The notes beneath the pieces were generated by a model, which saw nothing but the letters and a program-made list of their open reading frames with translations, was not told the DNA's origin and searched no databases. This document shows, piece after piece, positions 7,120-27,981 of a stretch of 36,849 bases of DNA (positions are counted from its first letter, which is position 1; each line of letters opens with the position of its first letter). Both the position numbers and the translations under genes were made by a program. Where the stretch lies: positions 1-36,849 of IMG/VR virus record IMGVR_UViG_2529292835_000026. One strand, 5' to 3'. The DNA comes from a virus (Duplodnaviria; Heunggongvirae; Uroviricota; Caudoviricetes).

Positions 7120-7635
7120 TCAGAGGCCGAGGGCGTTGCGGTGCGCTTCCATCAGGTCCACACCGTCCACAATTTCCACCATGTTGATAAGGTCCACTTC
7201 ATAGAGCACCTCACCATTGATAGTCAGCTTCGCGTAACTGTTGGTACTGGTCACTTTGGTGGTGTTGCTTTCGCCCGTCTTCCACTCGCCGGAGTCCACT
7301 TCTTTGTGACGTCCACGCACCACAAGCTCCACGGCCTGTACTTCCCCGGTATCATCACGCTGGATAGAGCCGGTAAAGCGCAACTGGATGCCATCCACCG
7401 TGGCTTTGCCCATCTGTTTAAACAGCAGCAGTTCAGTACCACCAATGGAAAATTCTGTGTCCAGAGCACTGTCATCAAGCCCCAGATCCACATCCACTGC
7501 ACCCGGCATTCCGCCGCCGCGATACTTCTCATATTTGCGGGTGAATTTCGGCAGCGTCAGCGACTCTACGATCCCCTGCCAGTTGTTCCCGTCGTTAAAC
7601 AGGTTCAGATGTTTTAATTTGCGTGGTAAAGCCAT
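7120..7635 (-). CDS. FII: Tail tube protein (gpFII-like)
   Basis: 171-aa ORF directly downstream of the sheath gene. Confidence 0.9.
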   Translation of the reverse strand: MALPRKLKHLNLFNDGNNWQGIVESLTLPKFTRKYEKYRGGGMPGAVDVDLGLDDSALDTEFSIGGTELLLFKQMGKATVDGIQLRFTGSIQRDDTGEVQAVELVVRGRHKEVDSGEWKTGESNTTKVTSTNSYAKLTINGEVLYEVDLINMVEIVDGVDLMEAHRNALGL

Positions 7636-7644
7636 GTTGTCCCC

Positions 7645-8817
7645 TTACGCGCTGACCTGGCTGGCAAAATTCACCAGGTACTGATCGGTGATGCGCTGGC
7701 GCAGCATCAGATTTTCAAGTGGCGGCACTGGCGTGTAGTCATAGTCGATGGTGAGTTTTCCGGCTTTCAGCGTGTCTTTGTCGTTCACCGACTCATCCAG
7801 CCAGCAATCACCACCAATGAGATAGCCCTGACTGACCAGGCTGCGCATTTTGGCGCGGATACCTTCGATAATGTCGCGGGCCAGCGACGGGTTAAGCGGT
7901 TTATCCACTGCCCACATGTGCGCTTCTGCCATTGTGTCCGTCAGCACCTGCGCCGTGCGGGTGTAGTTTTCGAAGGCAAAGAGCGGGTCATCACTCAGGC
8001 AGCGGGAACCCCAGAAGCGGAAACCGTCTTTACGCACAAGCGTGGTGACGTCGTTCTGGTTCAGCAGACCTGCATCGGTTGCCGGGTCCTGCAGATCCCA
8101 GAACACATCTGCAGAAATTCCGGTGACACCGTTCACGCCCACGTTGGACAGGCTTTTGTGCCACCCGGTCTGCTCATCAATTTTGGCACGCAGACCAAGC
8201 GCACGGGCGGTGGCATATGCCGTTGCTTCGGCATTCAGCACCGTGTCCCAGCCAGTAAAGTCGGGCCAGATCAGCATTCCTTCGCGCTGGCTGAAGTTTT
8301 CACGGTAAGTGATCGCCTCCTGTACCGTCTTGCAGCCATACGCTGACAGGTAAGCAAACCCACGCAGGCTTTGCGCCACGCTCAGCAACTCAGTCGCAAC
8401 GGCTTTGTTATCGTGACCTGGCACGCCGAGAATGCGCGGTTTAACGCCGAGCTGTGACTGGGCAGATAGCAGGGCTTTCATGCCTGTTTTTTTACCTTCA
8501 GCAGTCACAGCGCCGATGATATTGGTCGTGGTTTCGTCTTCCGTTTCACCCTGCGGCACACGCACAACAACGGTCACGGGTTTTGCCTGGTCAGCGATGG
8601 CATCCAGCGAACGGGCCAGAGTACCGGACTCACCCGCTTTACCGCTGGCAGTCAGCACATCAGTGATCAGCACGGGTTTATTAAGAGGAAACATTTTTGC
8701 ATCGGCATCATCGCCCGTGCAGACCATACCCACGATGGCGGTGCTCACCGTGGTAATGGATCGGGTGCCTTCGTTGACTTCAACAACGCGCACCCCGTGG
8801 TGGTAATCCTGAGCCAT
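7645..8817 (-). CDS. FI: Contractile tail sheath protein (gpFI-like)
   Basis: 390-aa ORF at the head of the FI-FII-E-T-U-D operon. Confidence 0.9.
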
Positions 8818-13603: not shown

Positions 13604-13626
13604 AGTTGTAACTAAGGAGGCGATTG

Positions 13627-14064
13627 ATGAAATCTTGGAAAAACCGAGGATTTAAAAAAAGGGTTCTTGAATATGTTTACTGTTTCTCCGCTGCTCCATT
13701 TTTAGCCATGTTCTACACGTTGTCAGAAAACCAGCTGACAATGTTTATAATTTTCTTCACTGTGAGTTTTTATCTCACTCTGATGGCATCCGTTTTTTTA
13801 ACAAAACGAGGATTTAACAAAGTATTCAAAGAATTCTTTAATTTATTATGGAACTATGAAACGGCCTTCGTTTTTTGCTATGGCCTTTATACTTATCTTT
13901 ATAGAATTGATGGGCAGAAAACTTTATCAAACCTCCTTACCATTATGTTTTCAGCTCACCCATGGACACTTATTTTCGGCATCGGACTCTTGGTTTTCAC
14001 AGTAATTTTCAGGTTTGCTCTGAGTGTTGCTGACTTGCTAGTTGAAGTTAAGTCAGATATATAA
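13627..14064 (+). CDS. Small polytopic membrane protein (about 145 aa), moron between V and S
   Basis: AAGGAGG 6 nt upstream of ATG at 13627 (the ORF track begins 3 nt earlier at a TTG); AT-rich; about four hydrophobic helices; opposite strand to the flanking late genes. Confidence 0.7.
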   Translation: MKSWKNRGFKKRVLEYVYCFSAAPFLAMFYTLSENQLTMFIIFFTVSFYLTLMASVFLTKRGFNKVFKEFFNLLWNYETAFVFCYGLYTYLYRIDGQKTLSNLLTIMFSAHPWTLIFGIGLLVFTVIFRFALSVADLLVEVKSDI

Positions 14065-20041: not shown

Positions 20042-21808
20042 ATGAACACCACACTGACCCCCGCAGATCTCGATCCCCGTCGGCAGGCCATGCTGCTGTA
20101 CTTTCAGGGATACCGCGTAGCCCGCATTGCTGAAATGCTGGGCGAGAAAGTTGCAACCGTTCACAGCTGGAAAAAACGCGACAAGTGGGGTGACTATGGG
20201 CCGCTGGATCAGATGCAGCTCACCACCGCCGCACGCTACTGCCAGCTCATTATGAAGGAGCACAAAGAAGGGAAAGATTTCAAAGAGATTGACCTGCTGG
20301 CGCGCCAGTCGGAACGCCACGCGCGGATCGGCAAGTTTAACAATGGCGGTAACGAAGCCGACTTAAACCCTAACGTCGCCAACCGCAACAAAGGCCCACG
20401 CCGTCAGCCGGAAAAGAACGTTTTCACCGATGAACAAATTGAGAAGCTGGAAGAAATTTTCCATTCCTCCATGTTCAACTACCAGCGCCACTGGTGGGAA
20501 GCCGGAAAAACCAACCGCATCCGCAACCTGCTGAAGTCTCGCCAGATCGGCGCGACCTTCTATTTTGCCCGTGAAGCCCTGATTGACGCCCTGCTGACCG
20601 GACGTAACCAGATTTTCCTTTCCGCCAGCAAGGCACAGGCCCACGTCTTTAAGCAGTACATCATCGACTTCGCCAAAGAAGTGGAGGTGGAGCTGAAAGG
20701 CGATCCGATGGTGCTTCCTAACGGGGCCACGCTTTACTTCCTCGGCACCAATGCCCGCACGGCCCAGAGTTATCACGGCAACCTGTATCTGGATGAATAT
20801 TTCTGGATCCCAAAATTCCAGGAGTTGCGCAAAGTGGCTTCCGGTATGGCTATTCACAAGAAATGGCGGCAGACCTATTTTTCCACACCATCCAGTCTGA
20901 CCCACAGTGCTTATCCGTTCTGGTCCGGTGCGCTGTTCAACCGTGGGCGCAACAAAGCTGACAAGGTGGACATCGACCTGTCCCACAGCAATCTGGCCCC
21001 CGGCCTGCTGTGCGCAGACGGGCAATACCGCCAGATAGTCACCGTGGAAGATGCGGTGCGCGGCGGCTGTAACCTGTTCGACCTTGACCAGTTGCGCATG
21101 GAGTACAGCCCGGACGAATACCAGAACCTGCTGATGTGCGAGTTTGTTGACGATCTCGCGTCCGTGTTCCCGCTCAGCGAGCTGCAGGCGTGCATGGTGG
21201 ACAGCTGGGAAGTCTGGACCGACTTTCATGCACTGGCTCTGCGCCCGTTTGGCTGGCGCGAAGTGTGGATCGGTTATGACCCGGCAAAAGGTACGCAGAA
21301 CGGCGACAGCGCCGGGTGCGTGGTGGTGGCACCGCCAGCCGTGCCTGGTGGTAAGTTCCGCATTCTTGAGCGTCACCAGTGGCGCGGGATGGACTTCCGC
21401 GCCCAGGCTGACGCCATCAAAAAACTGACCGAGCAGTACAACGTGACCTACATCGGCATCGACTCGACCGGCGTCGGCCACGGGGTTTACGAGAACGTGA
21501 AAGCGTTTTTTCCAGCCGTCCGGGAGTTTGTCTACAACCCCAACGTTAAAAACGCTCTGGTACTCAAGGCCTACGACATTATCAGCCACCGCCGTCTGGA
21601 GTTTGACGCCGGGCACACCGACATTGCGCAGTCATTCATGGCAATCCGTCGCGCCACCACCGCCAGTGGCAACCGCCCAACCTATGAAGCCAGCCGCAGC
21701 GAAGAAGCCAGCCACGCCGATCTGGCCTGGGCAACAATGCACGCACTGTTTAACGAACCGCTGCAGGGCGAGTCCGCCAATACCAGCAATATTGTGGAGA
21801 TTTTTTGA
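20042..21808 (+). CDS. P: Terminase ATPase (large) subunit gpP-like
   Basis: 588-aa ORF divergent from O, in the P2 gpP position. Confidence 0.9.
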   Translation: MNTTLTPADLDPRRQAMLLYFQGYRVARIAEMLGEKVATVHSWKKRDKWGDYGPLDQMQLTTAARYCQLIMKEHKEGKDFKEIDLLARQSERHARIGKFNNGGNEADLNPNVANRNKGPRRQPEKNVFTDEQIEKLEEIFHSSMFNYQRHWWEAGKTNRIRNLLKSRQIGATFYFAREALIDALLTGRNQIFLSASKAQAHVFKQYIIDFAKEVEVELKGDPMVLPNGATLYFLGTNARTAQSYHGNLYLDEYFWIPKFQELRKVASGMAIHKKWRQTYFSTPSSLTHSAYPFWSGALFNRGRNKADKVDIDLSHSNLAPGLLCADGQYRQIVTVEDAVRGGCNLFDLDQLRMEYSPDEYQNLLMCEFVDDLASVFPLSELQACMVDSWEVWTDFHALALRPFGWREVWIGYDPAKGTQNGDSAGCVVVAPPAVPGGKFRILERHQWRGMDFRAQADAIKKLTEQYNVTYIGIDSTGVGHGVYENVKAFFPAVREFVYNPNVKNALVLKAYDIISHRRLEFDAGHTDIAQSFMAIRRATTASGNRPTYEASRSEEASHADLAWATMHALFNEPLQGESANTSNIVEIF

Positions 21809-22836
21809 TGGGAAAGAGTAAGAAGAACCGCGCTGCGTCGACGAAACAGATTCAGCATAAAAGCCAGACTTCAGCCGAAGCATTCAGCTTCGGTGATCCC
21901 GTTCCTGTTCTGGACCGCCGCGAATTGCTGGACTATGTGGAATGCGTACAGATGGATCGCTGGTATGAGCCGCCCGTCAGCTTTGACGGACTGGCACGAA
22001 CCTTCCGCGCCGCCGTGCATCACAGCTCACCGATTGCGGTGAAATGCAACATTCTGACCAGCACCTACATCCCTCACCCGCTGCTCAGCCAGCAGGCTTT
22101 TTCACGTTTTGTGCAGGACTATCTGGTATTCGGTAACGCCTACCTGGAGAAACGCACGAATCGATTCGGTGAAGTTATCGCCCTTGAGCCTGCGCTGGCA
22201 AAATACACCCGACGCGGATTAGATCTGGATACCTACTGGTTTGTGCAATACGGCATGACTACGCAGCCGTATCAGTTCACGAAAGGCAGCATCTTTCATC
22301 TGATGGAACCGGATATCAACCAGGAGATCTACGGCCTGCCCGGTTATCTTTCTGCCATTCCGTCAGCCCTGCTCAACGAGTCCGCCACGCTGTTCCGCCG
22401 CAAGTATTACATTAACGGCAGTCATGCAGGCTTCATCATGTACATGACCGATGCAGCGCAGAACCAGGAGGATGTGAACAACCTCCGCAATGCGATGAAA
22501 AGCGCCAAAGGTCCAGGCAACTTCCGCAACCTGTTTATGTACTCACCTAACGGCAAAAAGGATGGTCTTCAGATTATCCCGTTGTCAGAAGTCGCGGCGA
22601 AGGATGAATTTCTGAATATCAAAAATGTCAGCCGCGACGACATGATGGCTGCGCACCGCGTGCCGCCGCAAATGATGGGGATTATGCCTAATAATGTTGG
22701 AGGGTTTGGGGATGTAGAGAAAGCTAGTAAGGTTTTTGTTATAAATGAACTGATACCTTTACAAAAACGGTTACAAGAACTAAATTATTGGATAGATGAA
22801 GATATAATCCAATTTGAAGATTATAGTTTAACTTAA
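21808..22836 (+). CDS. Q: Portal protein gpQ-like
   Basis: ATG overlaps the P stop codon (TGATG); the ORF track starts 3 nt earlier at a TTG. Confidence 0.9.
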   Translation: MGKSKKNRAASTKQIQHKSQTSAEAFSFGDPVPVLDRRELLDYVECVQMDRWYEPPVSFDGLARTFRAAVHHSSPIAVKCNILTSTYIPHPLLSQQAFSRFVQDYLVFGNAYLEKRTNRFGEVIALEPALAKYTRRGLDLDTYWFVQYGMTTQPYQFTKGSIFHLMEPDINQEIYGLPGYLSAIPSALLNESATLFRRKYYINGSHAGFIMYMTDAAQNQEDVNNLRNAMKSAKGPGNFRNLFMYSPNGKKDGLQIIPLSEVAAKDEFLNIKNVSRDDMMAAHRVPPQMMGIMPNNVGGFGDVEKASKVFVINELIPLQKRLQELNYWIDEDIIQFEDYSLT

Positions 22837-22873: not shown

Positions 22874-23545
22874 TTAAAAACCAAGCTCATCTCTGATTCT
22901 TGGGAATTTTTTCATTACTCGAATATCAGTTAATAAATGCCAACGCCAAAAAACAGAAAATGGATATGATACATTACACATTGGCTTTAGCTTATTCTTG
23001 GCCTCTTGGATTTCTTGTTCTGTGCTTCGATCACTGACAAGTTTCATTCTCCAACCAGTAAAGTAAAACAATTCATCTTGTAACTTCTCTGAGAGATTTG
23101 CTCTTGTAATGCCCCTCAACCCCGTACTCGAAGAGTTAAAACACTTATCTAATAATTTGACTGTATTTAAAACCTTTCTACTTGGTCTTTTTCTTCTTGG
23201 GTATACTTGAACACCACTCGTTATAGCGTTCCCTGCGAGATGAACAATCTCACTGAAAACATCAACATCACTCTTTGTGCAATCAAGTAAGTTTTCAAAA
23301 GAATCACTTTTAATACTATTGCATCGACTGCAAGCTAAAAATAGATTGTTCCAATCATATTTGAGCTCATCAAGATCACGATGTGGAATAAAATGTTCTA
23401 TCTCTGGATCCATAAGATTACCTTGCTCACAGAGATAACATTTTCCATGAAATATTTCGTCTAAAGCATTTACAACTGTTTTATGGTTATATACTTTTCT
23501 CGACAAGCATTGAGGTGCAGGAATATTTCTAGTAACATTAAACAT
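22874..23545 (-). CDS. HNH endonuclease, Septu PtuB-like
   Basis: HGKCYLCE ... EIEHFIPH ... NNLFLACSRCNSIKS = HNH motif; overlaps the upstream ATPase gene by 8 nt; AT-rich. Confidence 0.75.
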   Translation of the reverse strand: MFNVTRNIPAPQCLSRKVYNHKTVVNALDEIFHGKCYLCEQGNLMDPEIEHFIPHRDLDELKYDWNNLFLACSRCNSIKSDSFENLLDCTKSDVDVFSEIVHLAGNAITSGVQVYPRRKRPSRKVLNTVKLLDKCFNSSSTGLRGITRANLSEKLQDELFYFTGWRMKLVSDRSTEQEIQEAKNKLKPMCNVSYPFSVFWRWHLLTDIRVMKKFPRIRDELGF

Positions 23546-24791
23546 CGTCTTCCCTTTCGCTATAATCTAAATATTTACTCTTAGCGATCATAAAAGCTGC
23601 TTTTGAACTTTTATCAAGAAAATCAATACTCTTCTGTAACGTTTTCATTATAGAATGAAATCTATCGTCGAAGACATTATTTTCTACTAAAGTCATTAAT
23701 TCTTTAACTAATGCATTTAGCTTATCCGAAGATACATCCTCACCCAACAATCCCTTTATAATTGCTGTGTAAGAATACAATGATAAATCACCCATCTGAT
23801 CCAATGTTGAGAGATTAAATATAATCGCATCAGATACTGATTGGATTACGAAAGGTGAATGCGTAGAAACAATAAATTGTATTTGCGGAAAAGATGATGA
23901 AAAAAAACTAAATACTTTCTTTTGCAATGTTACATGAAGATGAGCATCAATTTCATCAATAAGTACTATCCCTGTCATATCATGTTTTCTGATTTTATCA
24001 AGCTCTGCTTTTATCAATAAATCAGTATAAATAGAAAGAATTGATGAAAAACCAGATGACAACTTATCAAGTCCAAATGGTTCCTTATTATTTTGTAAAA
24101 GATAGATTTTCAACTTGTCGAGATCAAAATCCATTCTAATACTTTCATCTTCAAAAAGTTCTTTTAAGTCATCATTAATACTCTCAATAATATCAAAGGC
24201 TCTTTTATAGTCATCATCCTTGCCCACTCCCTTACTGACTAAAGCATAATTCCACAATGTAACTATGTATCTTTCAAAATACATACCAGCATCAATCTTA
24301 GAATTATTTCTCTGTGCGTTCCCATACTCAGTTAACAACAAATCGAGGCTGCTAATCTTACCATCATTTTTTATTTTCGCTTCTCGAATAGCAGGAAATA
24401 ATCTTATAATTGATTTTTTCTTTTTTGCAGCAACCCTGAAATCAACCACATCATTAAAAGTAATATCAAAGCTCTCAAATTCTTTTAATTTTTCTTTCAG
24501 TCTCTCAATTTCTTCGTTTAAATAGCTATAATTACCATCCCCTCTATTTGAATACTTTAAGTTTTCTTGACTGGAATTCAATTCCTTTTGTAGCTGCTCC
24601 TTAGTATAAGGATCATGTGAATTAATCGATTTTTCTATAAACTCATAAATATTCTCGATCAACCTAGTTTTACCAGAGCCATTATCTCCTGATATTATTA
24701 GATTCTTACCATCAAGATTTAATGTGTAAGGCTCATCGTTCCTTTTAAAGAAGATAGTTTCGATGAAATGTCGCATTATTCCTCCCGTCAT
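23538..24791 (-). CDS. ABC/SMC-type ATPase, Septu PtuA-like
   Basis: Walker A GDNGSGKT, ABC signature LSSGFSS, Walker B VLIDEIDAHLH, H-loop STHSP. Alternative start at 24776 (MRHF...) has a GGGAGGA Shine-Dalgarno. Confidence 0.75.
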   Translation of the reverse strand: MTGGIMRHFIETIFFKRNDEPYTLNLDGKNLIISGDNGSGKTRLIENIYEFIEKSINSHDPYTKEQLQKELNSSQENLKYSNRGDGNYSYLNEEIERLKEKLKEFESFDITFNDVVDFRVAAKKKKSIIRLFPAIREAKIKNDGKISSLDLLLTEYGNAQRNNSKIDAGMYFERYIVTLWNYALVSKGVGKDDDYKRAFDIIESINDDLKELFEDESIRMDFDLDKLKIYLLQNNKEPFGLDKLSSGFSSILSIYTDLLIKAELDKIRKHDMTGIVLIDEIDAHLHVTLQKKVFSFFSSSFPQIQFIVSTHSPFVIQSVSDAIIFNLSTLDQMGDLSLYSYTAIIKGLLGEDVSSDKLNALVKELMTLVENNVFDDRFHSIMKTLQKSIDFLDKSSKAAFMIAKSKYLDYSEREDDV

Positions 24792-24866
24792 ACTTAATAG
24801 CTTTTAGATAATATGACATTACATGTTAGATTTCATCCGTTTTGTGAACATATCCACTGCCGCGCG

Positions 24867-24885
24867 CTCGTATCCCCGCCACGCC
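24867..24885. other. Candidate cohesive-end (cos) site
   Basis: Minus strand reads GGCGTGGCGGGGATACGAG; the first 13 nt equal the start of the 186-type cos sequence as I recall it (GGCGTGGCGGGGAAAGCAT). Position between the Tum-like module and Q fits P2/186 genome order. Confidence 0.4.
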
Positions 24886-25083
24886 TGCCCGCTTTATGTA
24901 GTGGTTTTCATGCGCCTGCATGACATAAGCAAAAGCCCGCCACTCCTGGCAGGCCTCAGCAAAAACGATCCTCTAACGATCATGCGATCTCATTCGTCAT
25001 AGTCATGCACAGCCAAGGGAAGCGTAAATCCGTATCTGAATGACCGCTGAAAAGCTAATCATACGGGTTTACAAAGATGAAAG

Positions 25084-25123
25084 TCCGCTGTGAGCGAAAA
25101 GCGGATATTTCCATTGTTTTATC
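25084..25123. terminator. Hairpin with T-rich tail in the cos/divergent-promoter region
   Basis: TCCGCT-GTGAGCGAAA-AGCGGA followed by TATTTCCATTGTTTTATC. Confidence 0.3.
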
Positions 25124-25228
25124 TTGATCTAGTAAAAACAATACCCTCTTTACAAACAAAAATAATGAGTTACTATTTGCAGCACCTTTTAACCCAAAGG
25201 TTTATAATTAAAAAGGAATGGCATACCG

Positions 25229-25882
25229 ATGAATAAATACAAACTTTTCGCACAGCTATCAAGATATTCATTTGAAGCGCAGATTGATGATTTCGAAAAA
25301 TATATCCTAGGAGCAGGCGGCCAAAACAGAGTTGACTTATCGGAATTAAAAAAAGCATATGAAGATGAAAAAAAGAATGCTCCTGACGATTATATTAATT
25401 ACTTAGAAGACTATTATTCAGAGCAATATGATTTCTTAGTTAACATACAACCAAATATTTTTAATAAATCTGCTTTGGTATCTTTATACTCATGCTTAGA
25501 GCACAACCTAAACGACTATTGCAATATATGTCAAAGGATTGTAAACACCAATATATCAGTAACCGATTTTAATGGTGATGGCATCCACAAAGCAAAAAGA
25601 TATTTAACAAAATTAATGGATATAAACTTTGGCCTGTCACAAGAGTGGCGATTCATGACAGAGTTTAACAAAGTAAGGAATTGCATAGTTCATGCTAATG
25701 GAGACATTAAAAAAATGAGCACAGCTGTAGCCTTAAAAGATATCATTGATAAAACACCTACTCTTTCATTAAACAATGAAAATAATATAATAATCTCCTT
25801 AAATTATTTAAAAGATACTATCACAAAAATTAGAAAACTCTTTCAATGGTTATATACACATCTGGATCAATCATCGAAATGA
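25229..25882 (+). CDS. Uncharacterised 217-aa protein with HEPN-like R-x4-H motif (candidate defence/abortive-infection RNase)
   Basis: AAGGAA upstream of ATG; very AT-rich; motif EFNKVRNCIVHANGD fits the HEPN R-x4-6-H signature; no other recognisable domain. Confidence 0.5.
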   Translation: MNKYKLFAQLSRYSFEAQIDDFEKYILGAGGQNRVDLSELKKAYEDEKKNAPDDYINYLEDYYSEQYDFLVNIQPNIFNKSALVSLYSCLEHNLNDYCNICQRIVNTNISVTDFNGDGIHKAKRYLTKLMDINFGLSQEWRFMTEFNKVRNCIVHANGDIKKMSTAVALKDIIDKTPTLSLNNENNIIISLNYLKDTITKIRKLFQWLYTHLDQSSK

Positions 25883-25982
25883 ATACGATAACATCTCAGT
25901 TTGTTATTGGTCTATTTTTGAAAACAGCTATCGATGATATTAGTCTGTTCTTCGTCAATTAATATGCAATCCGTTCATGACA

Positions 25983-26004
25983 CAGGGCTGCTGTTACAGC
26001 CCTG
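25983..26004. other. Perfect 8-bp-stem hairpin between convergent cargo genes
   Basis: CAGGGCTG-CTGTTA-CAGCCCTG; no U-tract; sits in a short GC-normal patch between two AT-rich genes. Confidence 0.3.
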
Positions 26005-26134
26005 ACAACCTTAGACTTCAATCGATTCAGAGATCTCTAACGCATCATCACCCGTTGAACTCACAGCGATAAGTAGACGCTGGCGGCAATAACACAGAAG
26101 TGTAGCGGGAATTTGAACCACATAATTTGGTTTG

Positions 26135-27001
26135 TTAGATGGCTTTGCTTCGATATTCAATTTCTAAAATCGCCTTTGTCATTGCCGCAATAGTTATAGC
26201 TTCTACCATAGTCAATTCAGGCTTGTTCAAGCTTCCGTGTCCAGCAGTAGGTAATTTGTTACGTAAATCATAAATATCTTTAACAGCATCAATAAGATTC
26301 TTAGGTAATTTTGACATTTTTTCGAACTGTTTAAAAAAACCACCCAATGACTCATTTGCCACATTCGGGTTTTGAGTGATTTCCTTAGCCATAGTTTCTA
26401 AAACATTAGAGGCTGCGTGCAGTGCACCTGCCGGATCATTATTATCCAAGCAATTATTCATTCTATCTATTTGCTGAACGATATTTGGGTGCAATCTCTT
26501 TAAGTAATCACTAGCCAATTCTTCATTGAAATTTTTGACACTTTCAAAAACATCGCAATCTAAATAAAATTTAGGATTGACTGACATCCATGTATATTTC
26601 CAATCATTTTCTAAATTATCTTTTTCCGCAATCCGCCTGCCAGTGTCCTGATCTATCTCATCAACATATTTACACATATAATCGGCGTAGTAGTGTAAAT
26701 ATCTAAATGATATTTCTGGGCAAAAATTACTAACTGATGCAAGGCCGCCATATTCTTTTGTAGTAACTGTAGGGACTTCTTCATCACATAAAGATGAGAA
26801 AGTGGTTCTTTCCCAAAATTCGCCCAACTCTTTTTCTTTCCTAGTTGCCATACCAGCTATCATATTGATGCTTGAGAGCAAAACTACACTCTGATAGTAT
26901 CGAGGACATCTGTATGAACTAGCATATGGGCATATTGATGATGCTTTACGATTAATACGCTCTTTTTCCCACCAATTTTTATCAGGAATAATTCTTTGCA
27001 T
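26135..27001 (-). CDS. Uncharacterised 288-aa protein, candidate defence cargo
   Basis: Long AT-rich ORF convergent with the 217-aa gene; Cys-rich N-terminus (CPYASSYRCPRYY); no family recognised by eye; no clear Shine-Dalgarno at the first ATG. Confidence 0.5.
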   Translation of the reverse strand: MQRIIPDKNWWEKERINRKASSICPYASSYRCPRYYQSVVLLSSINMIAGMATRKEKELGEFWERTTFSSLCDEEVPTVTTKEYGGLASVSNFCPEISFRYLHYYADYMCKYVDEIDQDTGRRIAEKDNLENDWKYTWMSVNPKFYLDCDVFESVKNFNEELASDYLKRLHPNIVQQIDRMNNCLDNNDPAGALHAASNVLETMAKEITQNPNVANESLGGFFKQFEKMSKLPKNLIDAVKDIYDLRNKLPTAGHGSLNKPELTMVEAITIAAMTKAILEIEYRSKAI

Positions 27002-27439
27002 AATTTAGCTACTATCTCACGAGTGAATGAATGTTTAGCCTTCTGCACAGTTTATCAGTTCCGGCATGCCTACTGCTACCCCACTGATTCAACTTCAAGT
27101 TATGAGTTAAAGCGATTCGGTTTCGCTAGATGACACACTAGTGTTAATTTATGGATAAAAATTTATCACTTAAAATTAACTAATGCCTGTTGCGACCAAA
27201 AGTGTGCTGGAATATTATTTTCGTCTGGCCTATTATCAAGCTAATTATCCAAATTAGAGTTACTCTCATTCATCAGCAACAAATAAATACACCTGTTCAC
27301 TTTCTCAAAGTGTTCCTGTTTTATTTTTAAAGCAAACAACGCCGCCTATTCGTCCGAATGTACAACAAACATCAGGTTCTGACACAAAGTGGACGATCAC
27401 TTATCAAAATGACCGCCCACCTTACACCTCATTTCACTC

Positions 27440-27484
27440 GTTGCCCAAACTCCCCCCAACAGGATAAATCCTCTTGGGGGCAAC
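27440..27484. other. Extended G/C-rich stem-loop just downstream of the DinI-like gene
   Basis: CCCCCCAA ... TTGGGGG with inner AGGAT/ATCCT pairing, flanked by GTTGCCC/GGGCAAC; no clear U-tract. Confidence 0.3.
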
Positions 27485-27489
27485 GTTTC

Positions 27490-27723
27490 TTAATGCAGCC
27501 AGCTGTCGTCTTCCCACACCTTCTGCATAATTTTCAGCACTTGTTTTCTTTCTTCGTCCAGTTGCAGTCCGGTCAGTTCCACACCGTTAGAGCTACCTTT
27601 GCGGATACGAATTACCGTTTTGGGATACAGGGGGCGCAGATTGCGGTAAAGCTCGGATTCAAGGGCATCCAGGGTAGACTGGCTAATCTTCTGCTCTTTA
27701 TCGATCATTATTTCAATGCGCAT
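27490..27723 (-). CDS. DinI-family protein
   Basis: MRIEIMIDK...LDALESELYRNLRPLYP...VIRIRKGSSNGVEL...ERKQVLKIMQKVWEDDSW aligns with DinI; GAGGTGA Shine-Dalgarno before the internal Met used as start. Confidence 0.8.
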   Translation of the reverse strand: MRIEIMIDKEQKISQSTLDALESELYRNLRPLYPKTVIRIRKGSSNGVELTGLQLDEERKQVLKIMQKVWEDDSWLH

Positions 27724-27965: not shown

Positions 27966-27981
27966 CTGTTTATATTTACAG
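27966..27981. promoter_or_regulatory. LexA (SOS) box
   Basis: CTGTTTATATTTACAG = CTGT-N8-ACAG with AT-rich spacer, embedded in cCACTGTTTATATTTACAGTAt. Confidence 0.75.

Follow-up and report, generated by a model that had tools for sequence, protein, structure and literature searches.

Introduction

HEPN proteins of the AbiJ type carry swappable N-terminal domains (AbiJ-NTD1 to 5) and were proposed to combine a sensor or antitoxin with a suicide RNase toxin (Anantharaman et al. 2013, PMC3710099). HepS, a single HEPN-domain protein of 218 residues from the Gifsy-1 prophage (PDB 9oik), senses a siphovirus tail-tip protein and cuts tRNA anticodon loops, and it sets a precedent for one prophage-encoded single-HEPN protein that both senses and kills (PMC13043305). 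In P2-like prophages, the cos-proximal hotspot between gpA and gpQ holds old and tin in P2 itself, and diverse defence systems have been demonstrated there, according to the description of this hotspot in Rousset et al. 2022 (PMC9122126).

Here we analysed a window of 36,849 nucleotides (IMG/VR record IMGVR_UViG_2529292835_000026), which represents an Escherichia coli P2-like prophage, and within it a gene for a 288-aa protein. We consider it probable that this gene is a self-contained, mobile single-gene cassette for a two-domain abortive-infection-type protein, in which an N-terminal sensor or regulator domain is joined to a HEPN RNase effector.

Results

The 288-aa gene lies in the gpA-gpQ slot of a P2-like prophage

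The gene occupies 26135..27001 on the minus strand (ATG start, stop codon included) and encodes an N-terminal four-cysteine domain followed by a C-terminal HEPN domain. Its start codon matches the N-termini of the homologues in an alignment of 21 homologues. A 2.5-kb region of the prophage is 100% identical in five ETEC genomes, where the product is annotated as hypothetical protein WP_016569949. In these genomes RefSeq records genes for capsid, terminase, portal, HNH endonuclease, AAA ATPase, two hypothetical proteins, a DinI-like protein and a replication endonuclease. This gene order places the AT-rich island of the window (22.5-27.5 kb) between the portal gene on one side and the replication gene on the other. 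Within it, the 288-aa gene is found between the portal gene (21805-22836) and the DinI/Tum-like genes with the replication endonuclease. It is co-directional with, and downstream of, the SOS-type tum/DinI module, with a terminator-like hairpin in the stretch between it and the DinI-like gene.

An initial annotation of this DNA had described the gene as a long AT-rich ORF near cos and the Tum/DinI module, set apart from the phage backbone by about 490 bp of AT-rich non-coding DNA. Both points held up. The GC content of the gene is 0.354 compared to ~0.55 for the phage backbone, and the gap to the DinI-like gene (27002-27489) measures 488 bp with a GC content of 0.393. The slot corresponds to the P2 gpA-gpQ cos-proximal hotspot as this is described in Rousset et al. 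2022 (PMC9122126), and the gene has the two characteristics of cargo there, namely its location between A and Q and its variable presence among P2-like prophages. Table S5A of that work contains the same arrangement in NZ_CP025910, with the 288-aa gene and the convergent 217-aa gene next to it both labelled 'hypothetical'; the arrangement does not appear among the systems cloned and tested in the parts of that article available to us (PMC9122126).

The gene moves with its own non-coding flanks

A 1.49-kb cassette at 25899-27387 is 96% identical in Rac-type prophages. The homology begins at 25899, which gives a downstream non-coding part at 25899..26134 (minus strand) that contains an 8-bp hairpin, and it stops at 27387, which gives an upstream non-coding part at 27002..27387 (minus strand).

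The perfect 8-bp hairpin (CAGGGCTG-ctgtta-CAGCCCTG, 25983-26004) lies between the 288-aa gene and the 217-aa gene, and had been noted in the initial annotation together with the tail-to-tail arrangement of the two genes (217-aa ORF at 25229-25882, plus strand), both of which we confirmed. Its folding energy is -15.2 to -16.5 kcal/mol, with z values of -2.6 and -1.9 relative to shuffled sequences. The stem is stable, yet neither strand has a T-run after it and the terminator scan did not list it, and we did not accept it as a classical intrinsic terminator; it may act as an RNA 3' end or stabiliser. The Rac-type copies, in which the 217-aa gene is missing, retain the hairpin. This indicates that it is part of the 288-aa gene's own cassette.

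Presumably the gene also has a promoter of its own within 27002..27387. The best sigma-70-like match upstream of the gene has its -35 element at 27239 and its -10 element ending at 27211-27212. Sigma-70-like sites upstream of the gene were no more frequent than in shuffled sequence, and the promoter assignment is therefore tentative.

The C-terminal domain is a HEPN domain with a conserved predicted RNase site

The C-terminal domain spans aa 171-288 (26138..26491, minus strand). A fold search returned HEPN structures, including 5yep, 7ae2 and 8xdj, and the domain forms the four-helix up-down bundle of this fold; a sequence search of the 288-aa protein against solved structures in the PDB gave no match. 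The second HEPN helix (190-209) carries the acidic Ex3[KR] motif as E202-T-M-A-K206 (26384..26398, minus strand), in which E202 and K206 are invariant among 38 full-length proteins. The predicted RNase active-site motif, R247-N248-KLPTAG-H255-G256 (26234..26263, minus strand), spans the end of HEPN helix 3 and the loop that comes after it. In the same 38 proteins R247, H255 and G256 are invariant and N248 is conserved in at least 90%. The RNase-site positions and residue types of HEPN domains, with a canonical range of Rx4-6H, were defined previously (PMC3710099). The site here agrees with that definition in position and residue type, with the sole difference that the R-to-H spacer is 7 residues, one over the range. 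On this conservation we predict RNase activity for the HEPN domain.

The LRNKLPTAGHG segment, in which this motif lies, had been read earlier as reminiscent of Abi-type C-terminal regions. That resemblance was borne out by the HEPN fold and, below threshold, by a match to Pfam Abi_C (PF14355) at aa 227-279 (E 0.0017, 18.9 bits) that stays under the gathering cut-off of 24 bits. Scores of the relatives were similar, with 20.7 bits for the 97%-identical homologue P0001 and only 4 of 21 reaching E 0.01; precomputed tables flag PF14355 for the homologues P0001 and P0239. Given a score under the cut-off and so few relatives at E 0.01, the profile evidence makes the protein a neighbour of the Abi_C family and no clear member. 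PADLOC returned one weak match for the whole protein, to PDC-S32 (E 0.008), in the HEPN part.

The N-terminal domain contains four invariant cysteines

The N-terminal domain comprises aa 1-165 (26507..27001, minus strand), has an alpha/beta structure, and contains the motifs CP-x6-CPRY, SNFCPE, DEID and DC. In the alignment of 21 homologues, an N-terminal block of ~165 aa is common to all, and the C-terminal block of ~115 aa is swapped in Pseudomonas variants and nearly missing in short forms. The description of the N-terminus as Cys-rich was overstated, as the whole protein contains 7 cysteines in 288 aa, yet it pointed to a real feature: four of them are invariant across 128 homologues (codons on the minus strand: C24, 26930-26932; C32, 26906-26908; C94, 26720-26722; C149, 26555-26557). 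The complete set of invariant N-domain residues in these 128 sequences is C24, C32, R34, S38, W63, E74, C94, P95, E96, D117 and C149. The four cysteines may hold a Zn or Fe-S centre.

Remote-homology search and structure prediction had been proposed as a check on the gene, and both proved informative. While they gave a HEPN fold for the C-terminus, the AF2 model of the N-domain built on a deep alignment was confident (pLDDT 92.8, pTM 0.85) and unmatched: no fold relatives were found in the PDB or BFVD, and no matches in Pfam (E up to 1), NCBIfam, PHROGs or PADLOC. Readings of the domain as a PD-(D/E)xK or Cas4-like Fe-S nuclease were rejected, as they lacked structural support.

When 1.84 billion representative proteins were searched exhaustively with a profile, 657 clusters at 50% identity, from many phyla, fell into the N-domain family, 547 of them below E 1e-10. 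Nearly all matches are confined to profile positions 1-160; the proteins range from 154 to 819 aa in length. Mean pairwise identity is 52.7% for the N-domain compared to 60.8% for the HEPN domain, a slightly faster divergence of the former. The N-domain is still far more conserved than is typical for domains that bind phage proteins directly. This suggests that a conserved ligand or signal is at least as likely a cue as a phage protein. With 11 residues invariant across phyla, E74, E96 and D117 among them, the domain might also be an enzyme in its own right or a module that binds a ligand.

The N-domain is fused to other immune effectors elsewhere

Among 150 family representatives, the Pfam domains found C-terminal of the N-domain were TIR_2 (19), TIR (11), CAP12/Pycsar-type TIR (5), DpnII/MboI REase (3) and PLD (2), with SEFIR, Schlafen/AlbA_2, protein kinase with TPR repeats and GGDEF as further partners; one bona fide Abi_C domain (2e-14) was present, and no Pfam family covered the N-domain in any of the 150. 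In about a quarter of the family members a hydrophobic, TM-like segment directly follows the N-domain. The commonest form of the family is a protein of 170-220 aa, and many members consist of the N-domain and a short tail. The initial annotation had passed over this N-terminal domain, a widespread, uncatalogued module swapped among immune effectors, which we regard as the most interesting part of the protein.

A PADLOC census of the family yielded PDC-S66, PDC-S35, PDC-S05, bSEFIR, ThsB and a REase model. When ten architecturally diverse representatives were scanned individually, all matches fell on the C-terminal effector part. The PDC-S35, S66, S05 and bSEFIR models were accordingly rejected as carriers of the N-domain, as only effector halves were matched. 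Module swapping was observed in the other direction as well: a Rhodococcus plasmid protein has only the HEPN half in common with the 288-aa protein (39% identity, ...RNtePTAGHG...) behind an unrelated N-terminus. A constant module combined with many alternative, well-known immune effectors suggests that the N-domain is an input module, either sensor or regulator.

The gene is rare and occurs in several mobile contexts

Of 5,426 complete E. coli genomes, 24 contain the gene, and the mobile contexts in which it occurs are of five kinds or more. This agrees with the earlier view of it as variable cargo and not backbone. It was absent from 50,697 deposited phage genomes. The E. coli copies reside in P2-type prophages (10 records), Rac-like lambdoid prophages (8), an integrative island (1) and plasmids (6). 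In the Rac-like prophages the gene is flanked by replication genes on one side and a zeta-toxin/hok region on the other. The Rac-type copies all appear to be inactivated: the annotation is split in 8 of 8, and in two of them a nonsense codon was verified at position 115. This suggests that the gene is dispensable in these prophages. The integrative-island copy is flanked by Gabija-like genes and a DUF4297+ATPase pair. Plasmids with the gene include a P1-like phage-plasmid, and some copies adjoin type I toxins.

Orthologues in other genera were likewise found in mobile or defence-related surroundings. The Salmonella orthologue belongs to a myovirus prophage, where it adjoins tail-fibre genes and genes for a GT4-conflict glycosyltransferase and a DUF4145 protein; the Pectobacterium orthologue is in an integrase-bounded island; the Vibrio orthologue adjoins DUF2971 and ParDE genes. 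Short forms of the N-domain adjoin ApeA, HicB and Phd/PIN genes. At the 43 N-domain family loci from a genome scan that used a narrower N-domain alignment (Deltaproteobacteria, Acidobacteriota, Verrucomicrobiota, Nitrospirota and others), the nearby genes include integrases and transposases, with no recurrent neighbour among them. The neighbour census revealed no strong enrichment of known defence systems near distant family members.

Genes next to the cassette in the P2-like prophage

The 217-aa ORF at 25229-25882 encodes a protein with a canonical R-N-x3-H motif (VRNCIVH) and a weak RTasHEPN match (5e-5), named RiboL-PSP-HEPN domain-containing protein in UniRef. All 10 P2-type E. coli records have the two genes side by side in convergent orientation. 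A tblastn search of the 288-aa loci detected a 217-aa homologue in the P2-type locus only. Conversely, 217-aa homologues without the 288-aa gene were found at the end of a lambdoid prophage, in a Morganella P2-like phage between sheath and tail-fibre genes, and in an Enterobacter prophage. The suggestion in the initial annotation that these are two independent genes is thus supported; its other suggestion, that they form a convergently transcribed pair, is not, and the two genes do not co-occur across genomes.

Further along the island, at 22874-24791, is a complete Septu pair (ORFs 23538-24791 and 22874-23545; PADLOC PtuA, E 7e-122, and PtuB, E 2e-82). Table S5A of Rousset et al. lists the Septu pair also with other cargo (PMC9122126). 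The 288-aa gene was rejected as an obligate Septu component, as PtuA and PtuB form a complete system by themselves and the 288-aa gene is also found where Septu is missing.

Tandem Repeats Finder detected no repeat array near the 288-aa gene; the one repeat that it listed, of 19 bp, is a chance repeat within the coding sequence. No Rfam family matched in 24700-27600. These results argue against an RNA antitoxin, and we rejected a type III toxin-antitoxin arrangement of the ToxIN, AbiF or AbiV-like kind.

Discussion

In the mechanism that we favour, the N-domain would keep the HEPN RNase silent until an infection cue arrives. The HEPN domain would be the effector, a metal-independent endoribonuclease that, by analogy with other HEPN RNases, would probably work as a dimer or higher oligomer. 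Its cleavage of tRNA, rRNA or mRNA would stop translation and thereby the infecting phage. We infer anti-phage defence as the selected function of the gene, and a sensing role for the N-domain, from sequence and genomic context.

It could be argued that the 288-aa gene and the convergent 217-aa gene make up one system linked by their common hairpin, for instance as toxin and regulator or as a pair of HEPN subunits. Two HEPN-type products encoded side by side in every P2-type record would fit such an arrangement. We nevertheless regard it as very improbable, as the 288-aa gene does without a 217-aa homologue in Rac-type prophages, the NCTC9064 island and the Salmonella, Pectobacterium and Vibrio loci (tblastn), no similar-sized hypothetical gene is annotated beside its plasmid copies, the 217-aa homologues stand alone at three other prophage sites, and the hairpin moves with the 288-aa cassette. 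An ordinary phage function, whether structural, metabolic or in lysogeny control, conserved in P2-like phages is no more credible. The position downstream of, and in the same direction as, the SOS-type tum/DinI module would suit such a function, but the terminator-like hairpin between the gene and its DinI-like neighbour speaks against it, as do the small number of P2-type records with the gene (10 in 5,426 E. coli genomes), the gene's absence from the deposited phage genomes, its occurrence outside phages, and its AT-rich, foreign DNA.

A further reading takes the gene as an addiction or stabilisation module, or as a weapon between elements: a toxin with a cis-inhibitory domain that serves the element and not host immunity. 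HEPN toxins are common in toxin-antitoxin systems (PMC3710099), and the fold matches 5yep, 7ae2 and 8xdj point in that direction; short N-domain forms adjoin toxin-antitoxin genes and plasmid copies adjoin type I toxins, and the recurrent nonsense alleles would suit a costly toxin. We believe this to be unlikely, as neither a separate antitoxin gene nor an RNA repeat array accompanies the gene, which sits in a validated defence hotspot, and the N-domain partners (TIR, SEFIR, REase, PLD and membrane tails) are those of the immune repertoire and not classical toxins of toxin-antitoxin systems. Alternatively, the N-domain could be an active enzyme or nucleic-acid binder, such as a metal-dependent nuclease or an Fe-S DNA/RNA-binding domain, with the HEPN domain as an accessory. 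The invariance of E74, E96, D114, D117 and R34 alongside the four cysteines across phyla would be expected of such a domain, many family members have little beyond it, and HEPN domains without catalytic activity exist (PMC3710099). Against this reading, the HEPN site is strictly conserved and all alternative partners are of an effector kind, which points to the N-domain as an input module, and we judge the enzyme reading to be rather improbable.

A broader proposal goes beyond the two-domain defence cassette that we prefer. The N-domain might be a new metal-binding fold (Zn or Fe-S, bound by its four cysteines) that serves as the common input module of a large, broadly distributed and unrecognised family of single-protein immune sensors, and that passes one conserved cue (a small molecule, a nucleic-acid feature or a redox/metal signal, and not a variable phage protein) to HEPN, TIR, SEFIR, REase, PLD, kinase or membrane-tail outputs. 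We offer this tentatively, as a possibility that is more doubtful than not. If the cassette defends against phages, it is a compact, single-gene addition to the repertoire of the P2 hotspot and, more importantly, would expose an uncatalogued sensor domain that precedes TIR, SEFIR, HEPN, nuclease and membrane effectors in hundreds of clusters from many phyla. The ligand of this domain, and the choice of its four cysteines between zinc and an iron-sulfur cluster, would show what sets off an entire family of single-protein immune switches. At present no model of the N-domain exists in Pfam, PADLOC or DefenseFinder. The family is also a natural experiment in sensor-effector swapping, with one sensor joined to several effectors, and one HEPN subtype joined to another N-domain.

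Of the described systems, the AbiJ family has the same layout and logic, with an N-domain of ~140-165 aa followed by a C-terminal HEPN domain with R-N...H-G, as in the 288-aa protein, for whose C-terminus Abi_C is the nearest Pfam model. AbiJ N-domains also occur joined to TIR, REase, HKD/PLD and kinase domains (PMC3710099), like the N-domain described here. The differences are that the present N-domain has no Pfam match, that the Abi_C score is sub-threshold, and that the R-to-H spacer is 7; the N-domain here has four invariant cysteines, whereas cysteines are nowhere mentioned in the AbiJ-NTD paper (PMC3710099). The N-domain may nevertheless equal AbiJ-NTD1 or NTD2. HepS has no counterpart of the four-cysteine N-domain and no detectable sequence relationship to the 288-aa protein. 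RnlA/LsoA, HEPN-MNT, AbiV and AbiF need a separate protein or RNA antitoxin, whereas the 288-aa gene has no conserved neighbour, repeat array or known RNA family nearby. The single-gene TIR/SEFIR systems and PADLOC candidates (bSEFIR, ThsB-like TIR, PDC-S35, PDC-S66 and PDC-S05) carry the same effector domains that are C-terminal in relatives of the N-domain, but their models cover the effector halves and none covers the N-domain. P2 old/tin and other gpA-gpQ cargo share the locus with the 288-aa gene, while their proteins are unrelated.

Our literature search found no report on WP_016569949, on Abi_C in the P2 hotspot or on a Cys-containing sensor domain of TIR/HEPN proteins, and no experimental report on any member of the 288-aa family or the N-domain family. 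The kind of system, an N-terminal sensor with an Abi-type HEPN domain as P2 hotspot cargo, is already known. What appears to be new is the N-domain family itself, uncatalogued in the libraries searched and without a relative among solved or viral structures, with its four invariant cysteines and its broad set of immune effectors.

Exchange of the N-terminal domain and HEPN halves

The two halves of the 288-aa protein (window 26135-27001) each occurred with other partners. In a set of Pseudomonas variants of ~300 aa (P0034-P0038 and P0042), the N-terminal, four-cysteine domain (N-domain) was retained at ~40% identity, and an unrelated C-terminal segment of ~130 aa stood in place of the HEPN half. 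This segment gave no Pfam match and may be an unknown effector. On the Rhodococcus qingshengii plasmid pCP3 (L066, 3524-4360), a 278-aa protein carried the same HEPN subtype as the 288-aa protein (39% identity, RNtePTAGHG) preceded by a ~160-aa N-terminal domain, unrelated to the N-domain and also without a Pfam match; its gene adjoins an ArdC-like gene. This protein is the reciprocal domain swap, with the same HEPN subtype joined to another N-terminus. The N-domain was also found internally in two large proteins: P0185 (754 aa), between a kinase (31-240) and TPR repeats (582-740), with the N-domain at 264-444; and P0121 (819 aa), where it spans 252-443 after an N-terminal region of ~250 aa and is followed by a SEFIR/TIR domain (425-563).

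Copies in Rac-type prophages and on plasmids

The 1.49-kb cassette carrying the 288-aa gene was present as an insertion, 96% identical, in Rac-type lambdoid prophages, where it adjoins a zeta-toxin gene and hokD. The gene copy lies at 7239-8105 in the Rac-like prophages of both E. coli ARS-C301 (L002) and ETEC4088 (L003), and six further genomes bring the total to eight. In the two copies that were translated (L002 and L003), codon 115 is changed from GAA to TAA within the invariant DEID motif; in the annotation, the gene is split identically in all eight genomes. The Rac-type copies look like a single inherited pseudogene allele. A homologue with 61% identity was located on the E. coli plasmid pAPEC201602 (L064, 5978-6856), a P1-like phage-plasmid, next to an IS3 element, and similar copies occurred on five other E. 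coli plasmids of ~45-100 kb.

Neighbouring genes and upstream DNA

The convergent 217-aa gene (25229-25882, + strand) encodes a HEPN protein too; the product contains the motif VRNCIVH and is named RiboL-PSP-HEPN in UniRef. This gene is an independent moron. Homologues with 63-81% identity stood alone at other prophage sites, such as the end of a lambdoid prophage in Salmonella diarizonae (L059) and, in a P2-like phage of Morganella (L061), the position flanked by sheath and tail-fibre-assembly genes.

The cos-proximal end of the hotspot that holds the 288-aa gene is occupied by a complete Septu system (22874-24791, - strand), whose overlapping genes matched PtuA (ATPase, 417 aa, E 7e-122) and PtuB (HNH nuclease, 223 aa, E 2e-82) in PADLOC. 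Elsewhere, within the tail and baseplate gene block, a second AT-rich insertion (13624-14064, + strand, GC 0.36) may be another moron; its 146-aa ORF, on the strand opposite to its neighbours, has several hydrophobic, TM-like segments.

Immediately 3' of the DinI-like stop codon lies a GC-rich nested hairpin (~27441-27486, - strand, CGTTGCCCCCAA...TTGGGGGGAGTTTGGGCAACG), outside the cassette common to the window and the Rac-type prophages. It is probably a terminator that shields the cassette from read-through. The sole LexA-box-like match in the window, the palindrome CTGTTTATATTTACAG (27966-27981), lies immediately upstream of the Tum-like ORF, a placement suggestive of an SOS-inducible tum/DinI operon of the 186 type whose transcription runs toward the 288-aa gene.
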